Source of the DNA: Candidatus Omnitrophota bacterium
Lineage (GTDB): Bacteria > Omnitrophota > Gorgyraeia > Zapsychrales > Zapsychraceae
Length of the DNA: 64,000 nucleotides
Assembly (NCBI GenBank): GCA_015233495.1
Contig: JADFXQ010000001.1
Span: 68,045-132,044, forward strand
Direction of reading: 5' to 3'
Shown: positions 5,021 to 54,469 of the stretch, piece after piece
How positions within the stretch are numbered: the stretch's first letter is position 1
Layout of the letters: each line of letters starts with the position of its first letter
Translations under genes and position numbers: made by a program
Notes under the pieces: generated by a model
Told to the model about the DNA's origin: nothing
Seen by the model: only the letters and a program-made list of their open reading frames with translations
The model's database searches: none

Positions 5021-5437
5021 ATGGAAACGTACATTTCTTTGTCGAAAAAATGGACCGCGCAGCAAAAAGAAATCTGGGCGGTGATTGAAGACCATTGGCA
5101 ATGTCTCGTCGAAGGAAAGACCGAACAATTCATCCAATACATTCACCCCGACTTTGTCGGATTCGGCCATGAAAGCCCTTACCCGGTGGATTTCGGCTGG
5201 CTGAAAGACTGGGTTGGTTTTTGGTCAAAAAGCACAAAATTTCTCACCCACGGCGTGCGGCCTATCCACATTGTTATTCACGACAATATCGCAATCGTGC
5301 AATACTGTCTGTTTACTATCGTTAAACACGATGTCAGCGCGCCGACCAGCTCCATCCGGCGTTACACCATGACCTGGAAAAAAACAAACGGTAAATGGCA
5401 AGTCATTGCCAGCCATAATAATCTGCAAGGGGAGTAA
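5021..5437 (+). CDS. SnoaL-like / NTF2-fold domain protein (DUF4440-like)
   Basis: 138 aa, with a WxxxxxxG...H...D NTF2-like pattern. One of few plus-strand genes, with an SD-like AAAGGAG upstream. Confidence 0.5.
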   Translation: METYISLSKKWTAQQKEIWAVIEDHWQCLVEGKTEQFIQYIHPDFVGFGHESPYPVDFGWLKDWVGFWSKSTKFLTHGVRPIHIVIHDNIAIVQYCLFTIVKHDVSAPTSSIRRYTMTWKKTNGKWQVIASHNNLQGE

Positions 5438-5438
5438 T

Positions 5439-5551
5439 ACAGGACACAAGTATTCTAAATTTTAATTCTAGTTTTTAATAGAAAATCAGGCAGACACAAC
5501 AAATTTTTAAATAAATGTAAACGACATTACTTGTGTCTTGTGTCTTGTGTC
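5439..5551. repeat. GACACAAG/CTTGTGTC terminal-inverted-heptamer intergenic element, copy 1 (forward)
   Basis: Left end is acaGGACACAAGta. Core is aaaatcaggcagacacaacaaattttt...aaatgtaaacgacat. Right end is taCTTGTGTCTTGTGTCTTGTGTC. Lies between convergent genes. Confidence 0.8.
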
Positions 5552-5555
5552 TTTT

Positions 5556-6326
5556 TTAAAACCGCACTACCACCCCAGTCACAATTCCACACGCTTCGTT
5601 TTTATTGACAATCGGACTTTTCTTGATATTGGTTCCCAGGAATTCCAGGTCGAAACGGGTAACTAAAAAACACGTTTTCGACAACCCCATATTAAACCCG
5701 AGATTGACAAAAGGATTCCACGCGGCGTCGCCTTTATACGACGAACGCGACGCATTGGCTTCATAATCCCGCACGCCATAATAATAATCCACGAACATTT
5801 TGCTTTGCCAGGACGCGCCCAGGGACGGAACAATTTCAAAAAACGACCCTTTGAATTTTTTCGTCAAAGCCAGAACGCCTTCTTGCCCGCCGTAGACGTT
5901 CAACACATCCGTCGAAACTTCCACGCTTAAAAACAAATCTTCCCCCCACGGGATCGTCCGCTCGACCCGGCCGCCGGCTGCCAGGGAATTATGGCGGTCT
6001 TCCATGCCGGCAAAAGCTTTGGAATCATCCGCCTGATAACCCGTCAGCTGAGGCGACAAAAAAACATCCGCGCGCCAATCGTCATTTTCAAAAGCCACCC
6101 ATCCGCCTTTCAACCCCTGAATAAAAAAATTTCCCTGCCGCCATTTGATTATCGGAATCGGCGTCACTGACGGCTTCATGTCCTCATACGGCCGGAAAGC
6201 AGTATAAACCCCCATACCCGCCACATTAAATTCTCCCTTCTCCCGAGGCGCATCCTGCGCCCATCCGAGGTTTGCGCAGCATAACAGTGACAAGCAAAAT
6301 TCCATCACAAGTTTCCGTGACAACAT
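5556..6326 (-). CDS. mipA: MipA/OmpV family outer-membrane beta-barrel protein
   Basis: Signal peptide, alternating beta-strand pattern, and a C-terminal aromatic (..VVRF) typical of OMPs. Size and motifs resemble MltA-interacting protein. Confidence 0.55.
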   Translation of the reverse strand: MLSRKLVMEFCLSLLCCANLGWAQDAPREKGEFNVAGMGVYTAFRPYEDMKPSVTPIPIIKWRQGNFFIQGLKGGWVAFENDDWRADVFLSPQLTGYQADDSKAFAGMEDRHNSLAAGGRVERTIPWGEDLFLSVEVSTDVLNVYGGQEGVLALTKKFKGSFFEIVPSLGASWQSKMFVDYYYGVRDYEANASRSSYKGDAAWNPFVNLGFNMGLSKTCFLVTRFDLEFLGTNIKKSPIVNKNEACGIVTGVVVRF

Positions 6327-13695: not shown

Positions 13696-14031
13696 CTATT
13701 GAGCTGAAAGAATCTCTTCAATGTATTTATTTAAACTATCGCCATTACGCAGGGCTTTAATCGTTATGGTCTTGTGAAGATCCGGGGAAATTCTTAACGG
13801 TATCTTCCCGGAAAATTTCCGGGACATAATCTGCGGCGGAATCGGCCGGCCGTCTTTTAACAAAATAGCTTCCATCTCCGCGGCCACGGCGCATAACTCT
13901 CGGAACACTTTAGATTCATCTTTTCCGTGCACCCCCCCTAAAAACAGACCCGGCGCCGTCCCAATATAGCATTGGTCCTCATCCGACCATTCCACGACTT
14001 TTAAATAAGCGGGCCTTTTTTGTTTAATCAT
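13696..14031 (-). CDS. hicB: HicB family antitoxin
   Basis: HicB-like RNaseH-fold N-terminal region and a C-terminal RHH-like tail. Start MIKQKRP overlaps the hicA stop. Confidence 0.65.
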   Translation of the reverse strand: MIKQKRPAYLKVVEWSDEDQCYIGTAPGLFLGGVHGKDESKVFRELCAVAAEMEAILLKDGRPIPPQIMSRKFSGKIPLRISPDLHKTITIKALRNGDSLNKYIEEILSAQ

Positions 14032-14222
14032 TTCTGCGCCTCCCACAAAGCAATTTTAACCGCTTGCTCTTGATACGGTAAAGCATCATCGCCCAATTGA
14101 CCGGAAATAACAACCGCCGGGTGTAGCGGGTGAACAAACTTCCGATGACTGCCCTTGCCGCCCCGGTTAGCAAACCCCATTTTTTCCAAATCCCTGATCA
14201 ATTCGCGAATTTTGCGTAGCAT
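14028..14222 (-). CDS. hicA: HicA family mRNA interferase toxin
   Basis: 64 aa, ...GFANRGGKGSHRKFVHP... The GSH-containing YcfA/HicA motif. Confidence 0.7.
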   Translation of the reverse strand: MLRKIRELIRDLEKMGFANRGGKGSHRKFVHPLHPAVVISGQLGDDALPYQEQAVKIALWEAQK

Positions 14223-15613: not shown

Positions 15614-16303
15614 TCAGCGGATCTGCAGCAATTTATGCATCTGCGGAATTACGCGCGCGTCCCTTAAATATTTGGAACTAAGCCGCGCGAAAGACTCATA
15701 TTTTTCAATCGAATCCCCCGCCAGGGATTGTCCCTGCGGCTGAATCACCAAAACTATGCCCGGATCAACCGAAGCAACGAGTTGCGCGGCTTGCGCAACC
15801 TCTTCAAACGCGGTGCTCGGAGTGACAACAACTTTCGCATAAACATCTTTTTCCGCGGCAATTCTTAAAAATTCCTCATGTTCGGCCCAATAAGATTTTT
15901 CGCCAGTCGAAGTCGGCAGTTTGATATCCATAGAAACGATATCCACCGCCGGTAAAACCTCGGCTAAGGCCTGCGGCAAAGTGCCATTAGTCTCCAAAAA
16001 AACTTTGCGCCCGGACTGATGAATCATCTCGCCCAGCTTCCGCACTGCCGACGGCTGTAATAAGGGCTCGCCTCCCGTCAAGCTGACCGAATGGCATCCT
16101 TCCCATAACGACACAATTTGTTTAAACACCTCTGCCACGGATTGTGACGCTTCTGTCCGGGGAATAACCGCCGCGGATTTTGTGTCGCACCAGACGCAGT
16201 TTAAATTGCATCCCGCGAACCGGACAAAGACTTGGCAGACGCCGACATATTTCCCTTCGCCTTGAATCGAACGAAAAATTTCAACAATGCTCGCTGATGC
16301 CAT
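15614..16303 (-). CDS. queE: 7-carboxy-7-deazaguanine synthase (radical SAM)
   Basis: FVRFAGCNLNCVWCDT CxxxCxxC-like QueE cluster motif. Confidence 0.85.
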   Translation of the reverse strand: MASASIVEIFRSIQGEGKYVGVCQVFVRFAGCNLNCVWCDTKSAAVIPRTEASQSVAEVFKQIVSLWEGCHSVSLTGGEPLLQPSAVRKLGEMIHQSGRKVFLETNGTLPQALAEVLPAVDIVSMDIKLPTSTGEKSYWAEHEEFLRIAAEKDVYAKVVVTPSTAFEEVAQAAQLVASVDPGIVLVIQPQGQSLAGDSIEKYESFARLSSKYLRDARVIPQMHKLLQIR

Positions 16304-22485: not shown

Positions 22486-24039
22486 TTAATAATTGTCCCG
22501 GACCAATTTTTTCTCACAGACTTTCTGCATATGCGCGACTTCCGCTTCCCCAAACCGCTCCCGCAGCCGGTTCAAATACCGGACGTCCTGACAATAATCG
22601 TCAAAAGCCGCGTCCCGGAATTTTAAAATTGCCCCGCTGGTCAAATGTTGGGTAGGCAAAGGAAGACAATCGCGGCTAAGCTGGGCATAACTGCTCCACG
22701 ACTGCGGGAGCGGCCATCCTTCGCGGATCGCGTCTAAATATAATTGTGAACCGGGATACGCCATCGCGCAATAAAAATTTGGATAGGCGCAATTCAATTC
22801 TTTCGCTAAAGCCAGCGTGGCGCGCATGGATTCCAAATCATCGTCCGGCAGACCAAAAATAAAATTCGCGACCACCTCAATCCCGGCCGCATGGGTTTTG
22901 CGGACAATATCCTTAATGTCTTCTTCATTAAACCGGCCCTTGGAAACGGCATCCCGGACTTTTTTCGTGCCTGCCTCGATTCCATAAGCGATCCAATTAA
23001 TGCCTGCCTGTTTCATTTTGGGCAGCATATATTCTTTCACCGTGTCAATCCGGCCATACACCCAAAAATTCAAATCATATCCGCGTTGAATCACTCCGTC
23101 GCAAATCGCCTCAACATGGTCCCATTTCATGGCAAACAGCTCGTCCAAAATCTTGATATTTTTGACCCGGTAATTTTTAACCAAAAAATCGATTTCCTCC
23201 AGGACTTTTTCCGTCGGGCGGTAACGGATACCCGGTCCGCCGAATATCGCGCTGATACAGCAAAACCCGCAGTGAAACGGGCATCCTAAACTGGTGTACA
23301 CAACCGCGTAAGGCGCACGTTCGTTCAAATGACCAAAACAATGCCAATTATGCGCCCGGTATCGGCTCATATCTAACAAGTCCCAGGCCGGCATGGGCAA
23401 AGAACCCAAATCTTGAATATTATCCGGGCGAGGATTACTGACGATTTTTCCCCCGCGCAAATACCACAGACCTTTAATCGAAAAATCCCGCGCCAGCCCG
23501 CCGCGGATAGAATCAAACAAATCCGGCGCCGCGCCGCTCGGCAAATCCGAGATTTGGCCGCCTTCTCCGAGAGACCCCTGCCGGGCCTTACCGTTTTGTA
23601 AAGCCGCCAGCAATTCAGCGTGCGTGGTAAACCCCTCGCCAACCATGACGAAATCCACAGCCTCTTCGCGCAAGGTTTGCTCCGGCAAGGCGGACGGATG
23701 TAATCCGGCGATCGCCCGGGGAGTTGCCGGCGAAAGCGTCTTTAAAGCGGCCAAAACTTTTCCCGCGCCCGGCATATTGCAAGTGGAGGCGTTAGGGTTT
23801 GTCCCGGAAACAATCACTGAAACGAATAATGGTTTCGCGGCAAGCGCCCGAGCCGCGGTTTCCTGCTCGTCCAGATTTTCCGCTTCCGCGTCAATCACCC
23901 GAACGGAAAATCCCTTGTCCCGCAAATAAGCGGCAGTCAAAATCAGCCACAAAGGCGGCTCAATCGCGGACACATCCTCGCTCAGTCCCTGATACAAACG
24001 TTTTTGATTATTAGCTTTAATGAGTACAATATCTGGCAT
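22486..24039 (-). CDS. B12-binding domain radical SAM protein (class B)
   Basis: N-terminal cobalamin-binding-like region, YTSLGCPFHCGFCC cluster motif, 517 aa. Confidence 0.75.
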   Translation of the reverse strand: MPDIVLIKANNQKRLYQGLSEDVSAIEPPLWLILTAAYLRDKGFSVRVIDAEAENLDEQETAARALAAKPLFVSVIVSGTNPNASTCNMPGAGKVLAALKTLSPATPRAIAGLHPSALPEQTLREEAVDFVMVGEGFTTHAELLAALQNGKARQGSLGEGGQISDLPSGAAPDLFDSIRGGLARDFSIKGLWYLRGGKIVSNPRPDNIQDLGSLPMPAWDLLDMSRYRAHNWHCFGHLNERAPYAVVYTSLGCPFHCGFCCISAIFGGPGIRYRPTEKVLEEIDFLVKNYRVKNIKILDELFAMKWDHVEAICDGVIQRGYDLNFWVYGRIDTVKEYMLPKMKQAGINWIAYGIEAGTKKVRDAVSKGRFNEEDIKDIVRKTHAAGIEVVANFIFGLPDDDLESMRATLALAKELNCAYPNFYCAMAYPGSQLYLDAIREGWPLPQSWSSYAQLSRDCLPLPTQHLTSGAILKFRDAAFDDYCQDVRYLNRLRERFGEAEVAHMQKVCEKKLVRDNY

Positions 24040-24062
24040 ATTTTATCATGTCCACACGATAC

Positions 24063-24175
24063 CAGGACACAAGTCATGTCGTTTACAATTTTTATAAATT
24101 TTGTTGTGTTTGCCTGATTTTATCTTAAAAAATAAGATTAAAATTTACAATACTTGTGTCCTGTGTCCTTGTGTC
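24063..24175. repeat. GACACAAG/CTTGTGTC element, copy 2 (reverse orientation)
   Basis: Core aaattttgttgtgtttgcctgatttt is the reverse complement of the copy-1 core. The ends are ccaGGACACAAGtc ... taCTTGTGTCCTGTGTCCTTGTGTC. Confidence 0.8.
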
Positions 24176-24178
24176 TTT

Positions 24179-25111
24179 TTAGACATTGGCATACTGATTT
24201 CGTTTCAAGATCCGGTAAGCCTTCACTAATTCTTTAATCCCGCCGGTCAGCGATACCGCCGGTTTAAAACCGGTCTTTTCGATTTTTTCATTGCTGACAA
24301 TATAATCGCGCTTGTCCGGATCTTCGCCGATTTTCGATTCGACGTAATAAAATTCCGGCACCTGTTTCTTGATTTCAGCGCACAATTCCTCTTTATTCAA
24401 ATTCGCGTCGCTCAAACCCACATTATAGGCTTGATTTTTCATGGTGTCAAAATGCGCCAACCCATGCACAAAGGCATTGGCCACGTCGCGGACATGAATG
24501 AAATTCCGTTTAAAATGCGCCTCAAACAACACCACAAACCGATCATTCACCGCCCGATAAACAAAATCATTCACCAATAAATCCAAACGCATCCGCGGGC
24601 TGACCCCAAACGCGGTCGCCAAACGCAAGGTGATCGCGTTGCCGGAATCGAGGATCGCTGTTTCCGCGTCCACCTTCAGCTTGCCGTAAAGCGAAACCGG
24701 CCTAAGTGGCGTTTCCTCCGTGCAATACTTGCCTTTTTCGCCGATCCCGTAACCGCTGTTCGTCGTAGGAAAAATAATCTTCTGCTGGGGACGGCGCAAA
24801 GTCAACATCAGCTTAATCGCGTCCAGCAAAACTGCCTGGGCAGTTTGCGGATCCTTCGCGCACAAAGGCGCCCCGGTCAAACAAGCCAACGGGAAAATCG
24901 CGTCCGCGTCGGCCAGCAATTTCTCAACGCAATTTTTGTCCCGCACATCCCCGCGAACAATTTCAAATTTCGGATCATGGCAGCAATCCAACAGCGGTGT
25001 CTGGCCATACATAAAATTGTCCAAAACCGTTACCTGATGCCCCTGTGACAACAACATCGGCGTCATCACCGACCCGATGTACCCGGCCCCGCCGGTAATC
25101 AATATTTTCAT
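24179..25111 (-). CDS. NAD-dependent epimerase/dehydratase (extended SDR)
   Basis: MKILITGGAGYIGS ... YGKLK catalytic YxxxK. Confidence 0.7.
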   Translation of the reverse strand: MKILITGGAGYIGSVMTPMLLSQGHQVTVLDNFMYGQTPLLDCCHDPKFEIVRGDVRDKNCVEKLLADADAIFPLACLTGAPLCAKDPQTAQAVLLDAIKLMLTLRRPQQKIIFPTTNSGYGIGEKGKYCTEETPLRPVSLYGKLKVDAETAILDSGNAITLRLATAFGVSPRMRLDLLVNDFVYRAVNDRFVVLFEAHFKRNFIHVRDVANAFVHGLAHFDTMKNQAYNVGLSDANLNKEELCAEIKKQVPEFYYVESKIGEDPDKRDYIVSNEKIEKTGFKPAVSLTGGIKELVKAYRILKRNQYANV

Positions 25112-26271: not shown

Positions 26272-26389
26272 TACACAAGACACAAGTATTCTGCTCGAAT
26301 GTCCTGCTTATTTAAGGCAAACTCAGGCAAACACAACAAAATATTTTCAAATGCCTAAACAACTTGACTTGTGTCCTGTGTCTTGTCTC
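26272..26389. repeat. GACACAAG/CTTGTGTC element, copy 3 (forward)
   Basis: Left end ataCACAAGACACAAGta. Core ctcaggcaaacacaacaaaatattttcaaatgcctaaa. Right end CTTGTGTCCTGTGTCTTGTCTC. Confidence 0.8.
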
Positions 26390-39071: not shown

Positions 39072-39131
39072 AAAGCAAAATCCCTTTTAACTTTTTTCCT
39101 AAAACAAAGTCCGAATAACTTTTTCCATTTT

Positions 39132-39204
39132 CCCTCCCCCCGGCCTTCCGGGAGGCCTGCCTGCCGGAAGGCTGTGGGGGAGGGGCAGGGGTGGGGGTGA
39201 GGGG
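39132..39204. promoter_or_regulatory. GC-rich extended hairpin flanked by C-tract and G4-capable G-tracts between DUF1015 gene and accD
   Basis: ccctccccccGGCCTTCCGG-gaggcctgcctg-CCGGAAGGCtgtgggggaggg is a ~20-bp stem. It is followed by gggg-a-gggg-ca-gggg-t-ggggg-t-gagggg. There is no U-tract. Confidence 0.4.
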
Positions 39205-39213
39205 AACGGCCGC

Positions 39214-40959: not shown

Positions 40960-41409
40960 TTATTTTGTAAAATGTGTTTTTAATTTATGCTTTTGAGCGG
41001 CAGCTAACAACGCCCCATCGTAGGTCAATAACGGGATATGCCCTAATCGCGCAGACAAATCCAAGTAGGCGGCGTCATAAGTTGTAAGATGATAAGTTCG
41101 TGCGATATCAAGAACGGAAGTGTTTAACCAGCCGGGTGACGATATTGCGTCAATAAACAACGGAAGCCGGCTGGCCATGTCGAGAATTCTTTCTTGAGTA
41201 TGGCGATTTAAGCGTCCTTTATTTTCTGCCATAACCAAGATATTCATGAATTCATAAACAAAAATAGACGGGACGTGGATTTTGATTCTATCTATTTTGT
41301 CAAGCGCCCCAGAATGCTCCCCGGCAGACTCATCCGGAAGAAACCATGAAGCCACAACATTAGCGTCAACGACAACAGATGATATTAAGCTCGACCCTGT
41401 CTTTTCCAT
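40960..41409 (-). CDS. vapC: PIN-domain toxin (VapC-like)
   Basis: VVDANVVASWF...(D) acidic PIN residues, YDAAYLDLS, 149 aa. Paired with the upstream small antitoxin. Confidence 0.65.
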   Translation of the reverse strand: MEKTGSSLISSVVVDANVVASWFLPDESAGEHSGALDKIDRIKIHVPSIFVYEFMNILVMAENKGRLNRHTQERILDMASRLPLFIDAISSPGWLNTSVLDIARTYHLTTYDAAYLDLSARLGHIPLLTYDGALLAAAQKHKLKTHFTK

Positions 41410-42054: not shown

Positions 42055-42181
42055 AGACACACGCCACAAGTAAGGTCATTTAGGCATTTGAAATATTTTG
42101 TCGTATGTGCCTGAGTATCAATATTTCAACAAGACTTTCAAACAGAATGTTTGTGTCTTGTGTCCTATCCTTTGTCCTGTC
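42055..42181. repeat. GACACAAG/CTTGTGTC element, copy 4 (reverse; closest to copy 3)
   Basis: aGACACACGCCACAAGta ... aggcatttgaaatattttgtcgtatgtgcctgag (reverse complement of the copy-3 core) ... TTTGTGTCTTGTGTCCTATCCTTTGTCCTGTC. Overlaps the dnaJ stop. Confidence 0.75.
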
Positions 42182-43329
42182 TATTTAAACACCTTCTTTA
42201 ACTTATCTTTAAACGATTTTTCACCAATATCTTCCCCGCTCGCTTTCGCAAAGTCTTCCAGAGCGCGTTTTTGGTCCGCGCTTAATTTCTGCGGGACGTC
42301 GATCATCATTTTCGCGTAAAGATCTCCGGTGCCGCCCTGATGCACATCCGGCATGCCTTTGCCTTTGAGCCGAAAGACCTTGCCGCTCGGCGTGCCTGCC
42401 GGGATTTTCATTTCCACCTCGCCGGCCAAAGTTTCAACCGCGACCTCGCCGCCAAACACGGCTTTGACAAACGGGATCGGCAGTTCCATATATAAATCGT
42501 TGCCCTCTCGCTTGAATATGTCGTGCTCTAGCGCATGGACATAAAGATAAAGATCGCCCGGCCCGGCCGCGCCGACCTCGCCTTCATGCCTGACCCGCAG
42601 CCGCGACGAATTATCCACACCCGGCGGGACATTCACGTCGATATTTCGGGTGATTTTGACCGCGCCCTGGCCGCCGCATTTCGGACAATATTCGGTGATC
42701 GTCCGTCCCTGGCCGTGACACGCCGGACAGGTCTGCTGCATCCGGAAAAATCCGCTCGACATCATAACCGCGCCTTGACCGCCGCAGGTCGGACACGTTT
42801 TGAGGGATTTGCCGTCTTTCGCGCCTGTGCCTTCGCAATCTTGACAAAATTCATGCCGAGGGACCTGAATTTTCCTGGCAACACCTTGATAAGCTTCCTC
42901 CAGCGTCACCTCAATCTCATATTGAATGTCCCGGCCGCGGCTCTGCCGGCGCGGACGCCCGCCCCCGGAAGACCGGCCGCCGCCGAACATCTCAAAAATC
43001 GAATCCGCGTTGCCGCCTCCGCCGCCGAATATAGAACTGAAAATATCGTTAAACTCGCCAAAATTCGCGCCGCGGAAAATATCCTCCGTCGTATATTGCT
43101 GATCAATCCCGGCGTGACCGTACTGATCATACATCTCCCGCTTCTTCGCGTCGGACAAAACGCCGTAGGCCTCGGAAATTTCCTTAAACTTCTCCTCCGC
43201 CGCTTTTTTCTCTTTCTCCTCAACTCGGTCCGGATGATAACGCAAAGCCAGCGACCGATAGGCCTTCTTGATCTGCGTAATATCCGCGTTCTTCTCGACA
43301 CCCAATATTTCGTAATAATCTTTTTTCAT
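42181..43329 (-). CDS. dnaJ: molecular chaperone DnaJ
   Basis: J-domain (YYEILGV...HPDR), G/F-rich linker, four CxxCxGxG zinc repeats. Start taken as [11 protein letters not shown]. Confidence 0.95.
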
Positions 43330-43349
43330 ATATTTTTGAAAGTCATAAA

Positions 43350-43487
43350 GACACAGGACACAAAGACATAAGATATGTTGCACACGTCATTTTAAAATTT
43401 TAATGTGTCTGTCTGATCATCCTTTAAAAAATAAAATACTAAATCACAACACTTGTGTCCTGTGTCTTTGTGTCTTGTGTCCTTGTA
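43350..43487. repeat. GACACAAG/CTTGTGTC element, copy 5 (reverse), between dnaK and dnaJ
   Basis: GACACAGGACACAAAGACATAAG ... core ... CTTGTGTCCTGTGTCTTTGTGTCTTGTGTCCTTGTa. This is the longest heptamer array. Confidence 0.8.
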
Positions 43488-43491
43488 ATCT

Positions 43492-45450
43492 TTATTTCTT
43501 CTCATCCTCCGCCCGAAAATCGGCGTCGATTACGTCATCCTTGCCGTCGCTCTTGCCGGATGAAGAATGATCATCCGCTTTTCCGGCATTCGGATGTCCA
43601 GCGCCCATATCCGGACCCGGACCAGCCTCGCCGCCCGGCGCCGCGCCAGCGCCCGCCGGCCCGCCTTGCGCCGCGGTCGCTTTATAAACTTCTTCCGCCA
43701 ATTTATGACTGGCTTTTTGCACAGCATCCATCGCGGATTTGATTTTTCCGGCGTCCTTGCTCTCGATCGCTTGCTTGAGCGCCGCGAGCTCATTTTCCAC
43801 ACTCGACTTATCACCTCCGGAAATCTTGTCGCCATAATCTTTCAGCGCCTTTTCCGTTGAATAAAGCAAGGTGTTCGCTTGATTATGCATTTCCGCTTCG
43901 TCGCGGCGTTTTTTGTCTTCATCGGCGTATTGTTCCGCCTGTTTCACCATCTTATCAATCTCTTCCTTCGACAATTTCGTCGGAGCCGTAATCCGGATCG
44001 ACTGTTCCTTGCCGGTCCCGCGGTCTTTCGCAGCCACATGAACAATCCCGTCCGTGTCAATGTTAAAGGTCACTTCCACCTGAGGAACGCCGCGCGGCGC
44101 CGGCGGAATTCCCACCAGATCAAACCGGCCCAATTCCGTATTGTCATTAGCCATTTGCCGCTCGCCCTGCAGAACCCGGATCGTCACCGCAGTCTGATTG
44201 TCATCCGCGGTTGAAAACACCTGGCTCTTTTTGCTCGGGATCGTCGTATTGCGATCAATCAATTTCGTAAACACCCCGCCCAAGGTTTCAATCCCCAAAG
44301 ACAACGGCGTTACGTCGAGCAAAAGAACTTCTTTCGCTTCGCCGCGGATGATCCCGCATTGCACAGCCGCGCCCAAGGCCACGCATTCCATAGGGTCAAT
44401 CCCGCCTTCGATCTTCTGCCCGATTTCCTTTTCCACGAACTTCTGGACAATCGGCATGCGCGTCGGACCGCCGACGAGAATCACCCGGTCCACCTTCACG
44501 TCACTCCCCAATTTCGCGGAGGCGTCTTTGATGGCCTGATGAATTGGGCCGCGGCAGCGCGCCACAATCGGCTCCACCAGACTTTCCAATTTGGCCCGTT
44601 CGATTTTCATAGTCAAATGTTTCGGACCCGTGGCATCCGCGGTCACGAACGGCAGATTGATGTCAGTCGAAACCGTGCTGGACATTTCCACCTTGGCCTT
44701 TTCCGCCGCTTCACGCAAGCGTTGAAACGCCATCTTGTCGCCTTTAAGGTTAATGCCGCTCTCTTTGCGGAATTCCTCGGTGATATAATCAATCAGGACA
44801 TTATCCATGTCCGTGCCGCCCAGCAAATTATCCCCACTCGTCGACAAAACCTCGAAAGTCGAGGCCTTGTGGCCTTCGTCCCAACCCATTTCCAGGATCG
44901 TGACATCGAGTGTGCCGCCGCCAAAATCAAAAACCATGATCTTTTGCTCTTTGCCGACTTTATCCAAACCATAGGCCAGACACGCGGCAGTTGGTTCATT
45001 GATGATGCGCAGCACTTTCAATCCTGCGATCTCCCCCGCGTCTTTCGTAGCTTGCCGCTGATTGTCGTTGAAATACGCTGGCACTGTGATGACCGCTTCA
45101 TCCACGGTATCGCCCAGATATTTCTCCGAATCCGCCTTGATTTTTTGCAAGATAAACGCGCTGATCTGTTGCGGCGTGAATTCCTTATCAAAGACCTTGA
45201 ACTTCTCGCCGGTCCCCATCTTGCGTTTGGCCGCGTATACGGTCCCTTCCGAATTAACCGCGGCCTGACGCCGCGCCGGTTCGCCGACCAAACGCTGGCC
45301 ATCTTTCGTGAACGCCACGAATGACGGAAATGCCTTGCCCGAAGCCACACCCGCGCCTTCGGCCGACGGAATAATCACCGGACGCCCGCCTTCCATCACC
45401 GCGGCCGCTGAATTCGAAGTCCCTAAATCAATCCCAATTGCTCTAGCCAT
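43492..45450 (-). CDS. dnaK: molecular chaperone DnaK (Hsp70)
   Basis: [22 protein letters not shown], and full-length Hsp70 similarity. 652 aa. Confidence 0.97.
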
Positions 45451-45480: not shown

Positions 45481-46065
45481 TTATTTGCTTTTCGCTAATT
45501 TGACTTTTGCGGTTCTGATAACCCGGTCTCCCAGACAATATCCTTTTTGCAATTCTTCCAAAACCGTCCCTTCTTCAACCGCATCATTCGGCTCTTGATA
45601 TAACACTTCCTGTGAATGCGGATCAAACTTTTTGCCCTTCGCCTCAAGCGGCTTGACTCCATGCTGGGACAACATCTTATTGATCTGCCCCATCACCAAC
45701 TCCACTCCTTTCAAAAACGCCTCATAATCCTCATGCTTAGCCTGCGCCACCGCCACCGTCCGCTCCAGATCGTCGAGAATATCCAAAAATTCAATGATCA
45801 GCCCCTCATTCGCGAATTTCCGAAAATCAATCCGTTCCCGTTCCCAACGTTTGCGCGCATTATCAAATTCCGCGACGAGACGGACATTGCGATCCTTATA
45901 CTCTGCGGCTTCAGAGAGCAACCGCTCATATTCCTCCGAAGGAATCGAAGCCATCTTGACTTCGCCGTCCGCCTTATCCGTCGTCTCAGGCGAATCAAAC
46001 GGCACCTGCTCCGAATTGTTCATATTTTCGTTTTCATCATCCATTAACAAAATCCTTGTCTTCAA
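45481..46065 (-). CDS. grpE: nucleotide exchange factor GrpE
   Basis: GrpE coiled-coil and C-terminal beta domain. The ORF-track start is a TTG. ATG at 46044 (MDDENEN) has an AAGGA SD and may be the true start. Confidence 0.85.
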   Translation of the reverse strand: MKTRILLMDDENENMNNSEQVPFDSPETTDKADGEVKMASIPSEEYERLLSEAAEYKDRNVRLVAEFDNARKRWERERIDFRKFANEGLIIEFLDILDDLERTVAVAQAKHEDYEAFLKGVELVMGQINKMLSQHGVKPLEAKGKKFDPHSQEVLYQEPNDAVEEGTVLEELQKGYCLGDRVIRTAKVKLAKSK

Positions 46066-46082
46066 ATAACACCGATACCCAA

Positions 46083-46204
46083 ACCGCGCGCTAAAAGTTG
46101 GTGAGGAAATGCTTTCGGGATCGTTCTGAGGCCGTTCTTACCTCTTTTTTCCAGAAAAAGGCCGAAGGCAGAGCCCGAAAACATTTCCTCACCAACCCGC
46201 GCGC
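46083..46204 (-). promoter_or_regulatory. long imperfect inverted repeat (>30-bp stem) in hrcA-grpE intergenic region
   Basis: CGCGCG..TTGGTGAGGAAATGCTTTCGGG ... CCCGAAAACATTTCCTCACCAA..CGCGCG. Mismatches become G-U pairs only in the minus-strand (mRNA) sense. Confidence 0.5.
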
Positions 46205-46252
46205 CTTTATCGGCAACGCGAAACAACGCCAAAGAACGCCTCGCGTGTAATC

Positions 46253-46990
46253 TCACCACATCTCTTCCAGCAACCGCGAAAAGTAATCCAGCGTAGAGAC
46301 AACGCGTTCATAATCCATACGCGTCGGTCCCAACACCGCGAGCCTGCCGCTCGGCCCATGATGCGTTTTATAACGCGATACAACCAACGAACACGTAGTC
46401 ATGCCTTGGCACCGAATCTCCTGACCAATATGAATATCAATCTTCCGCTGCAAATCCCGGTTAATCATATCCAGCAGCCGTTCCTTTTCATCCAACGCGA
46501 ATAAAATATGCCGGATACTTTCAATATCCTGATAATCGGGATACGCGGCAATGAAATTCGTCCCCCGGCAAAAAACCCGCCGCAAATCTCCGTCAATCGA
46601 AACCAGACTCGTATAATGCGTAGTTTCCGCCAGCACCTTTGAAGTGCGGTCCAAAATATCCTCCAACTCGCGAGTCTTGCGGTCATATTCCATCTTGATC
46701 CGCCGCTTTTCTTCTTCTAACAGATAAATTTCTTCCATCAAATAATCGACATAATACCGATACCCCCACTGGGTCGGAACCCGGCCCGCCGAAGTATGCG
46801 GATGAGTCAAATATCCTTCCTCTTCCAATTCCGCGAGAATATTCCGCACCGTGGCGGAACTCAATTCCGGCAAATATTTTTCCACAATCAATGCCGAACT
46901 TACCGGAGAAATATGATGAATATACTGCCCCACCGTAATCGCCAAAACCCGGTCTTTCCGCGCTTGAATTTCTGCTTTTTTAGTTTGCAT
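46253..46990 (-). CDS. hrcA: heat-inducible transcription repressor HrcA
   Basis: HrcA winged-helix N-terminus (ARKDRVLAITVGQYIHHISPVSS) and a GAF-like C-domain. Start MQTKK with a GGGAG SD. The longer ORF-track N-terminus overlaps CIRCE. Confidence 0.85.
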   Translation of the reverse strand: MQTKKAEIQARKDRVLAITVGQYIHHISPVSSALIVEKYLPELSSATVRNILAELEEEGYLTHPHTSAGRVPTQWGYRYYVDYLMEEIYLLEEEKRRIKMEYDRKTRELEDILDRTSKVLAETTHYTSLVSIDGDLRRVFCRGTNFIAAYPDYQDIESIRHILFALDEKERLLDMINRDLQRKIDIHIGQEIRCQGMTTCSLVVSRYKTHHGPSGRLAVLGPTRMDYERVVSTLDYFSRLLEEMW

Positions 46991-47034
46991 CCGTCTGCTC
47001 CCCATTTGGTTTTTCGTTCCCCGGAACGAAAAAC

Positions 47035-47061
47035 TTAGCACTCTATAAATCAGAATGCTAA
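47035..47061. promoter_or_regulatory. CIRCE operator (HrcA binding site) upstream of hrcA-grpE-dnaK-dnaJ
   Basis: TTAGCACTC-tataaatca-GAATGCTAA matches the CIRCE consensus TTAGCACTC-N9-GAGTGCTAA with one mismatch. The adjacent perfect palindrome TTCGTTCC-cc-GGAACGAA (47015..47032) lies between CIRCE and the start codon. Confidence 0.8.
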
Positions 47062-47083
47062 AGCGCAATTATAACAAAAAAGT

Positions 47084-47761
47084 TTAGGTTGTCAAATTTT
47101 CTATCCGCTTCACCAAATGCATCAATTTCTCCGCGCTTTTCTCTAATAAAGATAATTGATTAATTAAAATCGGACGGCTCGGTTTAAAATATCCCGCCTC
47201 GCTGAATTCTAAAATAATCTCGCCATCAATGACTTTCAAAGAATTGAAGACTGCTCCCCGCGTATCCGCGTTAGCAAAATCGACAAACAGTTGCGCGACT
47301 TGTTTATTCTCAAATAAACTCCGCGTCAAATCGAGATTATTCGTGTGATAAGTAAACCGCGCCAGGCTCTTCGGCAAAATAAACGGCGCGGCAGTCGTAT
47401 CGGAACTCTGAGTGTTCTGCGCAACCGGCGCTCGTTCGGCACGAATTGTTCTGCGGTCCTCTTTCTCCACCAGCGAAATAGAATAGGGCGTCGCGGTTTT
47501 CACGCGCAAATATCCTTTAAATTCCCGTTCGCGGAACCCGCGCGATTCTCGATCTTCATAAACGCACAAATGGCCGTCATAAACAAATTCGATTTTAAAA
47601 GCGTTTTCAAATTCCTCGAGTGGGATCACCTGACCCCCCACCTGCTTAGCCAAGGCGGACAAAAATTCTTCCCGGGTTATTTTTTTCACCCGAAACCCCC
47701 CGGATAAAAAAACAATTCCGATCAAGCACGCCGCAACAAATAAAATAATATACAAAGTCAT
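47084..47761 (-). CDS. hypothetical membrane-anchored protein
   Basis: 225 aa. N-terminal TM (LYIILFVAACLIGIVFL). No recognisable domain. Confidence 0.3.
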   Translation of the reverse strand: MTLYIILFVAACLIGIVFLSGGFRVKKITREEFLSALAKQVGGQVIPLEEFENAFKIEFVYDGHLCVYEDRESRGFREREFKGYLRVKTATPYSISLVEKEDRRTIRAERAPVAQNTQSSDTTAAPFILPKSLARFTYHTNNLDLTRSLFENKQVAQLFVDFANADTRGAVFNSLKVIDGEIILEFSEAGYFKPSRPILINQLSLLEKSAEKLMHLVKRIENLTT

Positions 47762-48665: not shown

Positions 48666-48749
48666 CTGTGCCTCCTGTTAGTTGAGGCATTATAACATAT
48701 CAGCCCTATTCACATGGTTCCAAAAACGAATTTCTACTAGGATTTACTG

Positions 48750-48953
48750 ATTTCTTGTATTCGCCGCGTTTGCGCGAAAGCGTTTTGAAACGGATCAGCG
48801 GAATAATTACCGAGCGCGCCTCTGTTCGAGTGCCGCCGGGGGCTATCCCCCGGCGGTGCGAGTTAGGCGCGCCCGCTGAGCCGCTTCAAAACAGCGGCCC
48901 TCCCGCATTGCAGAGGCGGGAGTTGAAGCTCTCAGCGACGAATACAAGAAATC
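48750..48953 (-). ncRNA. candidate structured RNA: ~200-nt extended hairpin with asymmetric internal bubble (6S-RNA-like architecture) immediately downstream of clpB
   Basis: 15-bp perfect closing stem GATTTCTTGTATTCG/CGAATACAAGAAATC. Internal 19-bp stem cgttttgaaacggatcagcgg/ccgctgagccgcttcaaaacag. Apical GCCGCCGGGGG-ctat-CCCCCGGCGG. The 3' side of the bubble forms CTCCCGC-attgcaga-GGCGGGAG. Mismatches become G-U only in the minus sense. Confidence 0.3.
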
Positions 48954-48964
48954 CGCCGATCCGT

Positions 48965-51544
48965 TCACACAATTTCGATCACCAACCCATCGGCCTTTGC
49001 CTCCACCCGAACTACGCTCTTTTCCTTCACATCACCCTGCAACATCTTCAAGGCGATCGGGTCCTGTAATTCCCGCTGAATCACTCTCTTTAAAGGCCGC
49101 GCCCCATACACCGGATCATAACCCAGCCGGCCGATATAATCCAAGACCGCGTCGGTCACCTCCAACGCGATATATTTCTGCGCCAGCCTTTCGCGCAGCA
49201 CTCCGACCTGAATATCCACAATCTTTCGGATATCCTCCTTGCGCAGCCGGTTAAACACCACAATCTCATCCAGCCGATTCAAAAATTCCGGCCGAAAATG
49301 AGCTTTCAACGCCTCCTGAACGCGAGATCGAATCTCCTGCCGCTTCTCCAAACCGGCAATCAAATCCGAACCGACATTCGACGTCATAATAATGATCGTA
49401 TTCTTAAAATTCACCAACCGGCCCTGCCCATCGGTCAACCGGCCGTCATCGAGAATCTGCAAAAGCGCGTTAAAAACTTCCGGATGCGCTTTTTCAATCT
49501 CATCAAACAAAATCACCGCGTAAGGCCGGCGCCGCACGGCTTCCGTCAACTGCCCGCCTTCTTCATAACCCACATACCCCGGCGGCGCGCCGATCAACCG
49601 CGACACGCTGTGCTTTTCCATATACTCGCTCATGTCTAACCTGATCATGGCATTAACATCATCAAACAAAAACCAGGCCAAAGACCGCGCCAGCTCCGTC
49701 TTGCCCACACCCGTCGGTCCGACAAAAATAAACGAACCCATCGGCCGGTTGGGGTCATTCAATCCGGTCGCTGACCGGCGGATACAATTCGCGATCAAAT
49801 CCACCGCGTCATCCTGGCCGACCACCCGTTTCTTTAAACTCTCCTCGATATGCACCAGCTTCTGCGTATCGCTTTCCATCAATTTCGTGACCGGGATCTT
49901 CGTCCACTTGGCAACTACCTCGGCGATATCCTGGTCATCAACTTCTTCTTTCAACAAAGCGCCGCCTTTCTGCAATTCCAGCAACGCCGCGTTTTCTTTT
50001 TGTAAATCCTTATCGAGCTGGACGAGTACACCATAACGGATTTGCGCCACCTTATCGAGCATCCCCTGTTTTTCAAATTGCTGTTCCTCGGCCCGGGCGC
50101 GCTCAATATCCGTCTTGATCTTGCGAATCCGCTCGATCCGTCCCTTCTCATTCTGCCAGCGGCCGCGCAATTGTTTGTTTTCTTCCTTAAGTTCCGCTAA
50201 ATCCTGTTTCAATTTAGCCAAACGCTGACGAGATGCCTCATCCGTTTCCTTAGCCAAGGCCTGCGCCTCGATTTCCATTTGCCGGATCTTGCGTTCATTC
50301 ACGTCTAATTCCTGCGGCATACTGTCAATCTCAATCCGCAAACGCGACGCTGCCTCATCTATCAAATCAATCGCCTTGTCAGGTAAAAACCGGTCGGTAA
50401 TATAGCGTTGTGACATCACCGCCGCCGCGATCAAGGCCGGGTCCTGAATCCGCACGCCGTGATGAATTTCATATTTTTCCTTCAAACCCCGCAGAATCGC
50501 GATCGTGTCTTCCACCGTCGGCTCATTCACCAGAACGGGTTGAAACCGCCGCTCCAGGGCCGCGTCTTTTTCAATATATTTGCGATACTCATCCAAAGTC
50601 GTAGCGCCGACACAGCGCAGCAATCCCCGTGCCAAAGCGGGTTTCAGCATATTGGAAGCGTCAAGCGACCCTTCAGCCTTGCCCGCGCCGACAATCGTGT
50701 GCAGTTCATCAATAAACAATATGATCTCGCCGGCCCGCGATTCAATTTCCTTAAGCACCGCTTTCAACCGGTCTTCAAATTCTCCCCGGAACTTGGCCCC
50801 GGCCAAAAGACTGCCAATATCGAGGCTAATGACTTTTTTATCCTTTAAACCTTCCGGCACGTCGCCAGAGGCGATCCGCTGGGCCAGACCTTCAATGATC
50901 GCGGTTTTCCCCACGCCAGGCTCGCCGATCAATACCGGATTATTTTTGGTCCGGCGGGACAAAACCTGCACGACGCGGCGGATTTCCTCATCACGGCCAA
51001 TCACCGGATCGAGTTTTCCTTGATTCGCGGCCGCGGTCAGATCCCGGCCGTATTTGTCCAATGCCTGATATTTCGCTTCCGGATTATCGTCCACCACGCG
51101 CTGCTCGCCCCGAATCTCTTTTAAAAAACGTAAAATATCGTCTTCGCTAATCCCGTTTTTCCGCAACTCCCGGCTCAAAATAGATTGCTGATCACGGGAA
51201 ATGGCCAAAAAAATATGTTCCTGCGAAACATAATCATCTTTCATGCCGGCAGCGATTTTTTGGCTGTTTTCCAACACCTGATTCGCAGCCGGAGACAAAA
51301 ACGGTTGTCCCCCGCCGTCCACAGCCGGACGCTTGCGCAAATTGTCATCCAAAGAACTCAACAACCGATCCGCGGACAAGCCGAATTTCTGCAATAAAAC
51401 GCCGAACAGCCCCGCGTCTTCCTTAATATAGGCAAAGGTCAAATGGTCAACATCAATCTGCTGGTGCCCCATCTGCCCCGCCAAATCCATGGCCTTTTGC
51501 AACCCCTCCTGCGACTTTTGCGTAAGCTTATCAAATCGAATCAT
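48965..51544 (-). CDS. clpB: ATP-dependent chaperone ClpB
   Basis: Two AAA+ modules ([16 protein letters not shown]), a middle coiled-coil, 859 aa. Confidence 0.97.
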
Positions 51545-51563: not shown

Positions 51564-51590
51564 TTAGCAGTCTATCATTGAGAGTGCTAA
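51564..51590. promoter_or_regulatory. CIRCE operator upstream of clpB
   Basis: TTAGCAGTC-tatcattga-GAGTGCTAA, 20 bp upstream of the clpB start, with a GGAGG SD between. Confidence 0.8.
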
Positions 51591-51694: not shown

Positions 51695-51916
51695 ATGGTG
51701 CGCATGAATATAACAATGCCGGATCGGATAGCTCAAAAACTATCTAACATAAACAATAAAAGCCGTTTTATCGCCGAAGCCGTCGAGGAAAAAATCGACA
51801 CCCAAGAAAAACAAATACTTTTTGCGGCTTTGTCTCAAGAATACAAACAAATGTCAATGCGGCAAAAAACATTCATCAAAGATTGGCAAAAAATTGAAAC
51901 CGAGGGCTGGGAATGA
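51695..51916 (+). CDS. ribbon-helix-helix (CopG/MazE-like) antitoxin
   Basis: 73 aa, MVRMNITMPDRIAQKL... RHH N-terminus. The stop overlaps the toxin ATG (ATGA). Confidence 0.55.
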   Translation: MVRMNITMPDRIAQKLSNINNKSRFIAEAVEEKIDTQEKQILFAALSQEYKQMSMRQKTFIKDWQKIETEGWE

Positions 51917-52260
51917 AAAATCCGCATCCCCAACGCGGAGAAATTTGGGTCGTTCAATTGGATCCCGCGATCGGCTCCGAAATCAAAAAAACCAGACCCG
52001 CCTTAATTATTTCAAACAACGCGCATAATCGTTTCATGGGCCATTTGACAGTTTTACCCATCAGCGACGCGGGTGAGAAAGTTTATTTAGTCGAGGTATT
52101 CCTCCCCGCCGGCATAGCAAACTTAACAAAAAATTCCAAAATCCGCTGTCATCAAATCCGAACCATTGACAAATCCCGTTTTATTAAACCGATAGGTTCC
52201 ATTCCACAAATGTATTGGGAATCTATTGAAAAAGCCCTGCGAATCCATTTAAATTTTTAG
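51913..52260 (+). CDS. MazF/PemK family endoribonuclease toxin
   Basis: GEIWVVQLDPAIGSEIKKTRPALIIS is the classic PemK/MazF N-terminus. 115 aa. Confidence 0.8.
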   Translation: MKNPHPQRGEIWVVQLDPAIGSEIKKTRPALIISNNAHNRFMGHLTVLPISDAGEKVYLVEVFLPAGIANLTKNSKIRCHQIRTIDKSRFIKPIGSIPQMYWESIEKALRIHLNF

Positions 52261-53578: not shown

Positions 53579-54469
53579 TTATTTCTTCAACAGCTTCTTA
53601 TTCTGCGGAATTGTAAGATAATTTTCCCGACTGACAACCAAGTCTCCGCTTTTTTGTTCCAATTCTTTTCTGGCATTGCCGGCCACACTTCCACCGTCAA
53701 TGGCTGCCTGCTTATTCGAATCAAAACCCTGGGAATTACGGCCGCGGGCGATTTTTGTCGTTGATGCTTCCCCAAGCATGGAGAAAATCAATTCCAAATC
53801 CGTCATATGATCCCGCAAATTCTGACGACTCAATCCCTTATATTTTTTATACTCGGAAGGGGTCATCCCAAATGCCGCTTTTGAAATTTCTGCAGTTAAA
53901 ATCGCGTAATTCTGCTGGTCTTTAATACCTCGTTTGTTCCATTCATCCGTCAATTCCTCCCTAATGGCAATACCGCGCACGCGTTTTTCAATCCACTCCT
54001 CCGAATATCCTTTTGCTTTATAAATCGCCCTTAAGCGTTTCATAGCCAGTTCGGGGTCTTCAATTTCCTGAACGCGCTCATAACCAACTTTAGCCAACCA
54101 GCGTTTAAATGGTTCTGCTTTGGGCGACGGTATCGTCTGAATAATACGAAATAAGCTTTCAGTATTAGCACAGTCTGTCAAATATTCCTTGCCGTCAGAT
54201 GCCATTAATTTCAGTTGTCCGATTTTTTCGGACACCTCAACATACCCTTCTTGAATCAATTTTTTCTTTAAATCGCTCCAATATTTCCTGGGTCTTGCTG
54301 TTTCAGTGAGCGCCTCCACAACATCAATAACCGAAAACCACCATTCATTCTGATGAATCGTTTTCCTAACCTGCTTTCCTTTAAAAACAGCAATTTTGGT
54401 TACACTGATTTCATTGCGCATCTCCGCCTCCCCCCATCCAAAACGATTCAAAAATATCAACCACAACAA
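53579..54469 (-). CDS. Bro-N domain protein, DNA-damage-inducible protein D (DinD)-like
   Basis: Bro-N-like N-terminus (VFKGKQVRKTIHQNEWWFSVIDVVEAL). The C-terminal region parallels E. coli DinD (...AILTAEISKAAFGMTPSEYKKYKGLSRQNLRDHMTDLEL...). Confidence 0.55.
   Translation of the reverse strand: MLWLIFLNRFGWGEAEMRNEISVTKIAVFKGKQVRKTIHQNEWWFSVIDVVEALTETARPRKYWSDLKKKLIQEGYVEVSEKIGQLKLMASDGKEYLTDCANTESLFRIIQTIPSPKAEPFKRWLAKVGYERVQEIEDPELAMKRLRAIYKAKGYSEEWIEKRVRGIAIREELTDEWNKRGIKDQQNYAILTAEISKAAFGMTPSEYKKYKGLSRQNLRDHMTDLELIFSMLGEASTTKIARGRNSQGFDSNKQAAIDGGSVAGNARKELEQKSGDLVVSRENYLTIPQNKKLLKK

Follow-up and report, generated by a model that had tools for sequence, protein, structure and literature searches.

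The spacer between hrcA and grpE in this Omnitrophota genome encodes a hairpin that is genuine and lies far beyond chance. We tentatively read it as a MITE-like insertion, co-transcribed with the surrounding operon, whose helix may be cut by RNase III or may block exonucleases, splitting the hrcA message from that of grpE-dnaK-dnaJ. As a class, it would be nothing out of the ordinary: an intercistronic palindrome, or MITE-like hairpin, that is transcribed with its operon and probably has a role in RNA processing or stability. All coordinates below are those of the window, that is, the whole 64-kb stretch of DNA (64,000 nucleotides) that was analyzed.

The genes hrcA, grpE, dnaK and dnaJ on the minus strand form a textbook class I heat-shock operon, whose components and clpB neighbor are the following.

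47068-47095, minus strand: sigma-70-type promoter driving hrcA-grpE-dnaK-dnaJ, TTGACA-16-TATAAT with an upstream TG, matching at 12 of 12 hexamer positions.
47035-47061, minus strand: CIRCE operator of the hrcA operon, TTAGCATTC-N9-GAGTGCTAA, with one mismatch to the consensus and 0 matches expected by chance.
46253-47005, minus strand: hrcA (Pfam HrcA, E = 1.8e-29), identical (100%) to NCBI protein HQL23_00530.
45481-46044, minus strand: grpE (Pfam GrpE, E = 5.8e-44), with its ATG at 46044 and an alternative TTG start at 46065.
43492-45450, minus strand: dnaK, operon member.
42181 to about 43329, minus strand: dnaJ, operon member.
48965-51544: clpB, just upstream of the hrcA operon, with its own CIRCE at 51564-51590.

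The hrcA stop codon occupies 46253-46255, and the start in the public annotation is the ATG at 46990 (245 aa). The spacer length of 187 bp given in an earlier note on this DNA is correct for a grpE start at TTG 46065 and becomes 208 nt for ATG 46044, which is preceded by a well-spaced AAGGA Shine-Dalgarno (46053-46057). No internal promoter for grpE was found between the hairpin and grpE at 9 or more of 12 matches, and the grpE-dnaK gap is 30 nt. From this layout we infer that the element is co-transcribed: lacking a promoter-like site downstream of it, it must be transcribed within the CIRCE/HrcA-controlled operon mRNA, and, given also the short grpE-dnaK gap, grpE-dnaK-dnaJ would depend on read-through.

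Several other features of this neighborhood deserve mention. The second CIRCE, TTAGCAGTC-N9-GAGTGCTAA (one mismatch, 51564-51590), lies directly upstream of clpB, so that in this organism the HrcA regulon appears to include ClpB. The Pfam HrcA match covers only the C-terminal part of the model (profile positions 125-215 of 215). Typical HrcA proteins are about 340 aa long, and since that of this MAG, like those of all the Omnitrophica relatives listed (P0001-P0120), has only about 245 aa, its architecture is a shortened one, possibly phylum-wide. Amid the housekeeping genes of the window are toxin-antitoxin-type genes identified with Pfam, encoding a MazF/PemK toxin, a HicB antitoxin and a PIN-domain protein (51913-52260 on the plus strand, 13696-14046 and 40960-41409 on the minus strand), as well as a BRO-N domain protein (53579-54469, Pfam).

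Within the spacer, a repeat search returned inverted arms at 46097-46136 and 46157-46196, each of 40 nt, 80% complementary and separated by 20 nt. The parts of the element and of its immediate surroundings are as follows.

46084-46204, minus strand: core element in the predicted fold, comprising the long imperfect palindrome and its GCGCGC-containing flanks.
46174-46196, minus strand: 5' arm (mRNA sense) of the basal 23-bp stem, with 22 Watson-Crick pairs and one G.U (46181/46112).
46097-46119, minus strand: 3' arm (mRNA sense) of the basal 23-bp stem, from the repeat search and the pairing register.
46120-46173, minus strand: imperfect apical half, forming short inner hairpins in the mRNA sense, including an 8-bp stem at about 46140-46162.
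46197-46204, no strand assigned: right copy of the 8-bp direct repeat CCGCGCGC, in which GCGCGC is the right clamp.
46084-46091, no strand assigned: left copy of the 8-bp direct repeat CCGCGCGC, in which GCGCGC is the left clamp.
46092-46096, minus strand: UUUUA (mRNA sense), directly 3' of the 3' arm, the only asymmetric insert of the palindrome.
46208-46213, minus strand: 5' half of an outer 6-bp stem (CCGAUA in the mRNA), from predicted folds.
46072-46077, minus strand: 3' half of the outer 6-bp stem (UAUCGG in the mRNA), closing around the element in predicted folds.
46216-46246, minus strand: small separate hairpin directly after the hrcA stop codon, from the predicted fold.

In strict palindromic register, 32 of the 40 arm positions are Watson-Crick and 8 are not; a single non-Watson-Crick position falls in the basal 23 bp (46097-46119/46174-46196), and six of the eight sit in the apical half. 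The GCGCGC blocks at 46086-46091 and 46199-46204 pair with each other in the predicted folds, and UUUUA then appears either as a short U-tract or, when the clamp pairs, as a 3-nt bulge. Pairing of the outer 6-bp stem varies with the length of the fragment folded. The imperfect inverted repeat of more than 30 bp, the GCGCGC clamps and the small inner hairpins that the earlier note had described in this spacer are thus all present.

The strength of the structure was assessed against 200 dinucleotide shuffles. For the 121-nt core the predicted energy in the mRNA sense is -67.9 kcal/mol (z = -9.0), and for the 211-nt spacer it is -90.0 kcal/mol (z = -6.0); the corresponding plus-sense values are -59.9 kcal/mol (z = -7.1) and -71.9 kcal/mol (z = -6.8). 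Not one of the 200 shuffles was as stable as the native sequence, on either strand and for core and spacer alike. Among approximately 4,260 sliding 130-nt windows over the 64 kb, the hairpin ranks third at 51% G+C, behind two with 65% G+C. The hrcA-grpE gap is also one of only four, out of the 21 intergenic gaps of at least 96 nt in the window, with z < -4.

The predicted mRNA-sense helix consists of 25 + 6 bp with a 3-nt bulge, and includes G.U pairs at 46181/46112, 46197/46096 and 46198/46095, the last two joining the stem to the clamp. It had been claimed that the mismatches of the repeat resolve to G-U pairs only in the mRNA sense, which is true of 46112/46181 and of the basal helix, uninterrupted in that sense; 46125/46168, by contrast, is a G.U pair only in the plus sense, and six positions pair in neither. 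The core is 8 kcal/mol more stable in the mRNA sense than in the plus sense, and its z-score is also better, whereas for the longer fragment much of the strand difference in raw energy reflects composition, since the z-scores of its two strands are close or in the opposite order. The asymmetry involves three G.U pairs, with one G.U the opposite way; it is not statistically decisive, and suggests a modest lean to the transcribed sense.

The strands of the window also differ in general composition. About 53 of the 59 ORFs of at least 110 aa lie on the minus strand, and the plus strand contains 18,449 C vs. 13,325 G, an excess that makes minus-sense RNAs G/U-rich and intrinsically more foldable. 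The mean MFE of 130-nt windows is -34.8 kcal/mol in the minus sense vs. -28.4.

In the reading that we favor, a lineage-specific palindrome of about 105 bp (46092-46196) would have been inserted into a formerly short hrcA-grpE spacer, where it would be transcribed with the CIRCE/HrcA-controlled hrcA-grpE-dnaK-dnaJ mRNA and form a very stable hairpin with the 25+6-bp helix at its base. Bacterial RNase III needs double-stranded RNA of about two helical turns (at least approximately 20-22 bp), and the predicted mRNA-sense helix, with its 25 bp and 6 bp, is of sufficient length. Because the basal duplex exceeds about two helical turns, cleavage in the stem or an exonuclease barrier would be its most likely effect. 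RNase III could make a double-strand cut in the stem, or the hairpin could act as a block to exonucleases; by either route the hrcA and grpE-dnaK-dnaJ segments would acquire different lifetimes, and the ratio of repressor to chaperone would not be fixed at 1:1.

Conservation of the pairing in orthologous operons had been set beforehand as a check, and it is not observed: the element is absent from all eight Omnitrophica relatives, whose hrcA-grpE spacers measure 0, 4, 5, 8, 13, 45, 62, and 96 nt. Using blastn and local alignment over 11 orthologous loci, we detected no element-like sequence above shuffled controls. Since no relative locus has similar sequence, the element is, as far as these loci indicate, lineage-specific. 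The closest HrcA proteins share 64-68% identity, a distance at which the exact empty site cannot be aligned and absence in relatives cannot separate insertion from evolution in place; synteny upstream is common to the window and to two of the relative loci (L002 and L011).

Unrelated hairpins are present in the two longer-spacer relatives that we read, two 9-bp stems in L002 and a 12-bp GC stem in L014, and the hairpins in relatives' hrcA-grpE spacers have no U-tail. The grpE-dnaK spacer of another relative, L003, contains three strong hairpins (z = -6.8). Structured junctions therefore recur in the dnaK operons of Omnitrophica, with variable positions and unrelated sequences. A hairpin after grpE in L002 (AAAGCGCGCGG...) was considered as a homologue of the element and rejected, its alignment being not above shuffled controls and its fold reaching only z = -2.1. 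L002 (HQL26 Omnitrophica MAG, JADFYJ010000003.1) has a grpE-dnaK spacer of 477 nt (5345-5820), which contains a duplicated block of about 130 nt (gtagggggcacgcgggttgaNgatgt, at approximately 5455 and 5585) and, in two places, tandem arrays of the 8-nt unit TTACTNNG that recall the GACACAR arrays described below for the window.

An origin by insertion, which the earlier note had not considered, is suggested by the perfect 8-bp direct repeat CCGCGCGC bracketing the 105-bp palindrome at 46092-46196. By our own estimate, the chance of such a flanking 8-mer is about 1e-3. Six of its bases are self-complementary and could equally be read as an extension of the stem; its two leading C lengthen the direct repeat and not the inverted repeat, and in this it looks like a target-site duplication, unlike a stem extension. 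Without 46092-46204 the spacer would be 95 nt long, inside the range of the relatives. With respect to MITEs, for which sizes of about 50-500 bp are the criterion, the 105 bp between the direct repeats have no coding capacity and end in near-perfect terminal arms of 23 bp, with five extra bases (TAAAA) between the direct repeat and the arm at the left end.

We searched widely for a second copy. None was found in the 64-kb window (blastn with word size 7, and a 15-mer search with three mismatches), in 185,579 GTDB species genomes, which do not include the source genome and in which a 20-mer arm pattern gave one chance archaeal match, or in plasmids and phages (blastn), and viral contigs returned 0 matches. 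JGI metagenomes likewise yielded no second copy, the 20-mer arm pattern giving four single-arm matches without hairpin context; the 20-mer common to them can be read as the peptide GEEMLS, and for this reason they look like coding sequence. Neither a transposase gene nor an RNase III gene (rnc) was found by Pfam among the approximately 58 ORFs of the window. As no second copy appears in the window or in the public collections searched, mobility of the element is unproven.

The window does contain a separate dispersed palindromic family, with at least four copies in 64 kb (5443-5551, 24063-24176, 26279-26382, and 43340-43484) and further possible ones at 42151-42164 and 16110-16186. Its copies consist of inverted arrays of 7-8-nt GACACAR/YTGTGTC units around an AT-rich core of about 85 nt, and two of them (24031-24200 and 43321-43500) are 80% identical over 90 nt. 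This family looks MITE-like, with tandem heptamers that could serve as iterons for protein binding. The dnaK-dnaJ spacer is taken up by one of the copies (fold z of about -4.7 to -5.4), which indicates that small palindromic insertions do occur in the hrcA-dnaJ operon.

These same observations bear on the strongest competing explanation, in which the palindrome is a selfish or neutral insertion, either a decaying orphan MITE or an inverted duplication that arose de novo, which is tolerated and has no more than an incidental regulatory role. The flanking direct repeat, the terminal-inverted-repeat-like architecture with intact ends and a decayed apical half, the absence from eight of eight relatives, and the invasion of intergenic regions of the same genome, the hrcA-dnaJ operon included, by another palindromic family are all consistent with it. 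Nevertheless, a 25+6-bp helix in the mRNA of an essential stress operon would hardly be inert towards RNase III and exonucleases, and both the lone mismatch of the basal stem and the junction of stem and clamp are G.U in the mRNA sense. In addition, the heat-shock cluster from clpB to dnaJ has three long spacers, and all three count among the window's four strongly structured intergenic regions, against one of 18 gaps elsewhere (P of about 0.003 if gaps are exchangeable, a post hoc value, with one of the three being a copy of the dispersed repeat). We consider a purely neutral insertion possible, if rather unlikely.

The three spacers in question (48735-48965, 46072-46213, and 43340-43484) are unrelated in sequence. 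They might represent a lineage-specific post-transcriptional layer on the CIRCE/HrcA regulon, a speculative idea to which we give little credence. If true, the spacers after clpB, hrcA and dnaK would set chaperone stoichiometry or stress-dependent mRNA lifetime independently of HrcA, by means of RNase III or exonuclease barriers, and the structured grpE-dnaK spacer of L003 would be part of the same theme.

The most stable predicted structure of the window (-127 kcal/mol, z = -8.8) lies at 48735-48965 (minus sense), from the clpB stop (48965) to the promoter of a MORN-repeat gene. It is multi-branched, spans about 230 nt and is closed by an inverted repeat of 28 nt. A search of Rfam with E as high as 10 gave no match to it, and it could be an as yet uncatalogued ncRNA, a terminator or stabilizer of clpB, or another palindromic insertion. 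A further G/C-rich hairpin, CCCTCCCCCCGGCCTTCCGG...CCGGAAGGCTGTGGGGGAGGGG (39130-39205), lies between a DUF1015 gene and an accD-like carboxyltransferase gene on the minus strand; its 130-nt window ranks second in stability, but against shuffles of its own gap it reaches only z = -0.95, which is not significant.

An attenuator had also been proposed for the hrcA-grpE element. In this case the hairpin would be a partial intrinsic terminator after hrcA, with some transcripts ending at UUUUA and the remainder reading into grpE-dnaK-dnaJ. Indeed, the one asymmetric insert of the palindrome contains a run of four U that, in the mRNA sense, falls exactly on the 3' side of the stem, and a 3'-end hairpin would also stabilize a monocistronic hrcA transcript. 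However, intrinsic (Rho-independent) terminators, taken here as a short GC-rich stem-loop with a U-rich tract (at least 5 U in 8) immediately behind it, are not what is found. The long hairpin was not called by the consensus scan, which returned nearby only a weak 5-bp apical stem (46176-46159), and after the inner stem there is only UUUU, followed by GCGCGC that pairs back. Terminator-like sites are not enriched in the region (10 found vs. 12.9 expected), and the relatives' spacer hairpins, as noted, are without a U-tail. With no promoter-like site downstream, efficient termination would starve grpE-dnaK-dnaJ of transcript, and would leave repressor in excess of chaperone, where the opposite stoichiometry is expected. 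The attenuator proposal is thus weak, and we regard it as distinctly improbable.

A signal acting at the DNA level, such as a palindromic protein-binding site or a cruciform with an effect on transcription or replication, is more improbable still. The plus strand is nearly as significant as the minus strand, as expected of any DNA palindrome; yet arms of 23-40 bp separated by 20-54 bp are unlike the geometry of an operator, the small asymmetries favor the transcribed sense, and there is neither similarity to CIRCE nor a similar site elsewhere in the window. The statement that the element is not a CIRCE is confirmed. A CIRCE is a 9-bp inverted repeat with N9 between its halves, and a pattern search for TTAGCACTC-N9-GAGTGCTAA with up to three mismatches gave nothing in 46045-46252, the only two matches in the window being those upstream of hrcA and of clpB. 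Least probable of all is the suggested RNA thermometer-like module, which would melt on heat shock and alter grpE translation or mRNA fate: in its favor there is only that the element sits in a heat-shock operon and has G.U pairs and internal loops, and the grpE Shine-Dalgarno (46053-46057) and AUG (46044) lie outside the structure and are not sequestered, with a predicted fold that is essentially constant from 20 to 70 C and retains -33.7 kcal/mol at 70 C, whereas known thermometers (ROSE or fourU type) are short, marginally stable hairpins that hide the ribosome-binding site and open at about 30-42 C.

Three other identities were rejected. No Rfam 15 family matches anywhere in the window at the gathering threshold, and the best sub-threshold match of the region (E up to 10) is mir-548, a generic long hairpin, with 28.3 bits vs. 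the 90 needed. An integron attC site begins (5') with RYYYAAC and finishes (3') with GTTRRRY, whereas here the order is reversed (GTTGGTG...CACCAAC) and there is no cassette context. The 65-aa ORF that runs across the spacer (46062-46259), considered as a gene for a small protein, has no Pfam match and no credible homologue among 1.84 billion protein representatives, two marginal matches with several matched stretches each being taken as noise.

The closest known counterpart of the processing that we tentatively propose is in Bacillus. The processing site between hrcA and grpE in the dnaK operon of B. subtilis (and B. cereus) was described by Homuth, Mogk and Schumann (1999), as cited in later work (PMC3446304; PMC11313650). 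In B. subtilis, according to those later accounts, RNase Y-dependent cutting between the two genes uncouples HrcA from the remainder of the operon (PMC11313650; PMC3446304). The operon, the junction and the proposed post-transcriptional uncoupling of repressor from chaperone cistrons are the same as here. In contrast, the two phyla differ, the sequences have no relationship, and cleavage is known in Bacillus, as against a predicted helix alone here. RNase Y moreover cuts single-stranded RNA near structures, whereas the long duplex of our element is better suited to RNase III.

Palindromic repeats of other bacteria offer further likenesses. REP/BIME-type hairpins and RNase III sites, for example those of phage T7 early mRNAs, set different lifetimes within one transcript. 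Both are intercistronic stable hairpins like the element here. REPs are short (about 35 nt) and highly repeated, unlike our element, and the T7 sites have characteristic internal loops that direct single-strand cuts. Correia elements (CREE/NEMIS) are palindromic intergenic insertions of about 100-150 bp that are co-transcribed with their neighbors, and in this resemble the hairpin described here. They duplicate a TA target, as against the 8-bp flanking repeat that we observe. They are also present in many copies per genome with a defined consensus, whereas our element is dissimilar in sequence and single-copy in everything searched. In Neisseria transcripts, RNase III cuts at the inverted repeats of Correia elements (PMC10969869; PMC2649163), and where these paired repeats are cut or bound by RNase III the expression of adjacent genes changes (PMC2649163; PMC10969869). 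The ERIC/IRU elements of enterobacteria, imperfect palindromes of 127 bp, are of similar size and, like the element here, palindromic over their whole length. Located between genes in regions that are transcribed, they modify mRNA decay (PMC10969869; PMC2759123). Unlike our element, they are multi-copy with a known consensus, and their reported effect is via RNase E; there is no sequence similarity between the two.

The finding would leave our understanding of the heat-shock response and of RNA processing unchanged. If the helix is cleaved, or if it is a barrier that affects stability, an uncultured candidate phylum would have reached the Bacillus solution via a different molecular route, with a long duplex, probably supplied by a palindromic insertion, detaching the hrcA message from the chaperone message after transcription. 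It would then also be a further example of a small mobile palindrome recruited to tune expression inside an operon.
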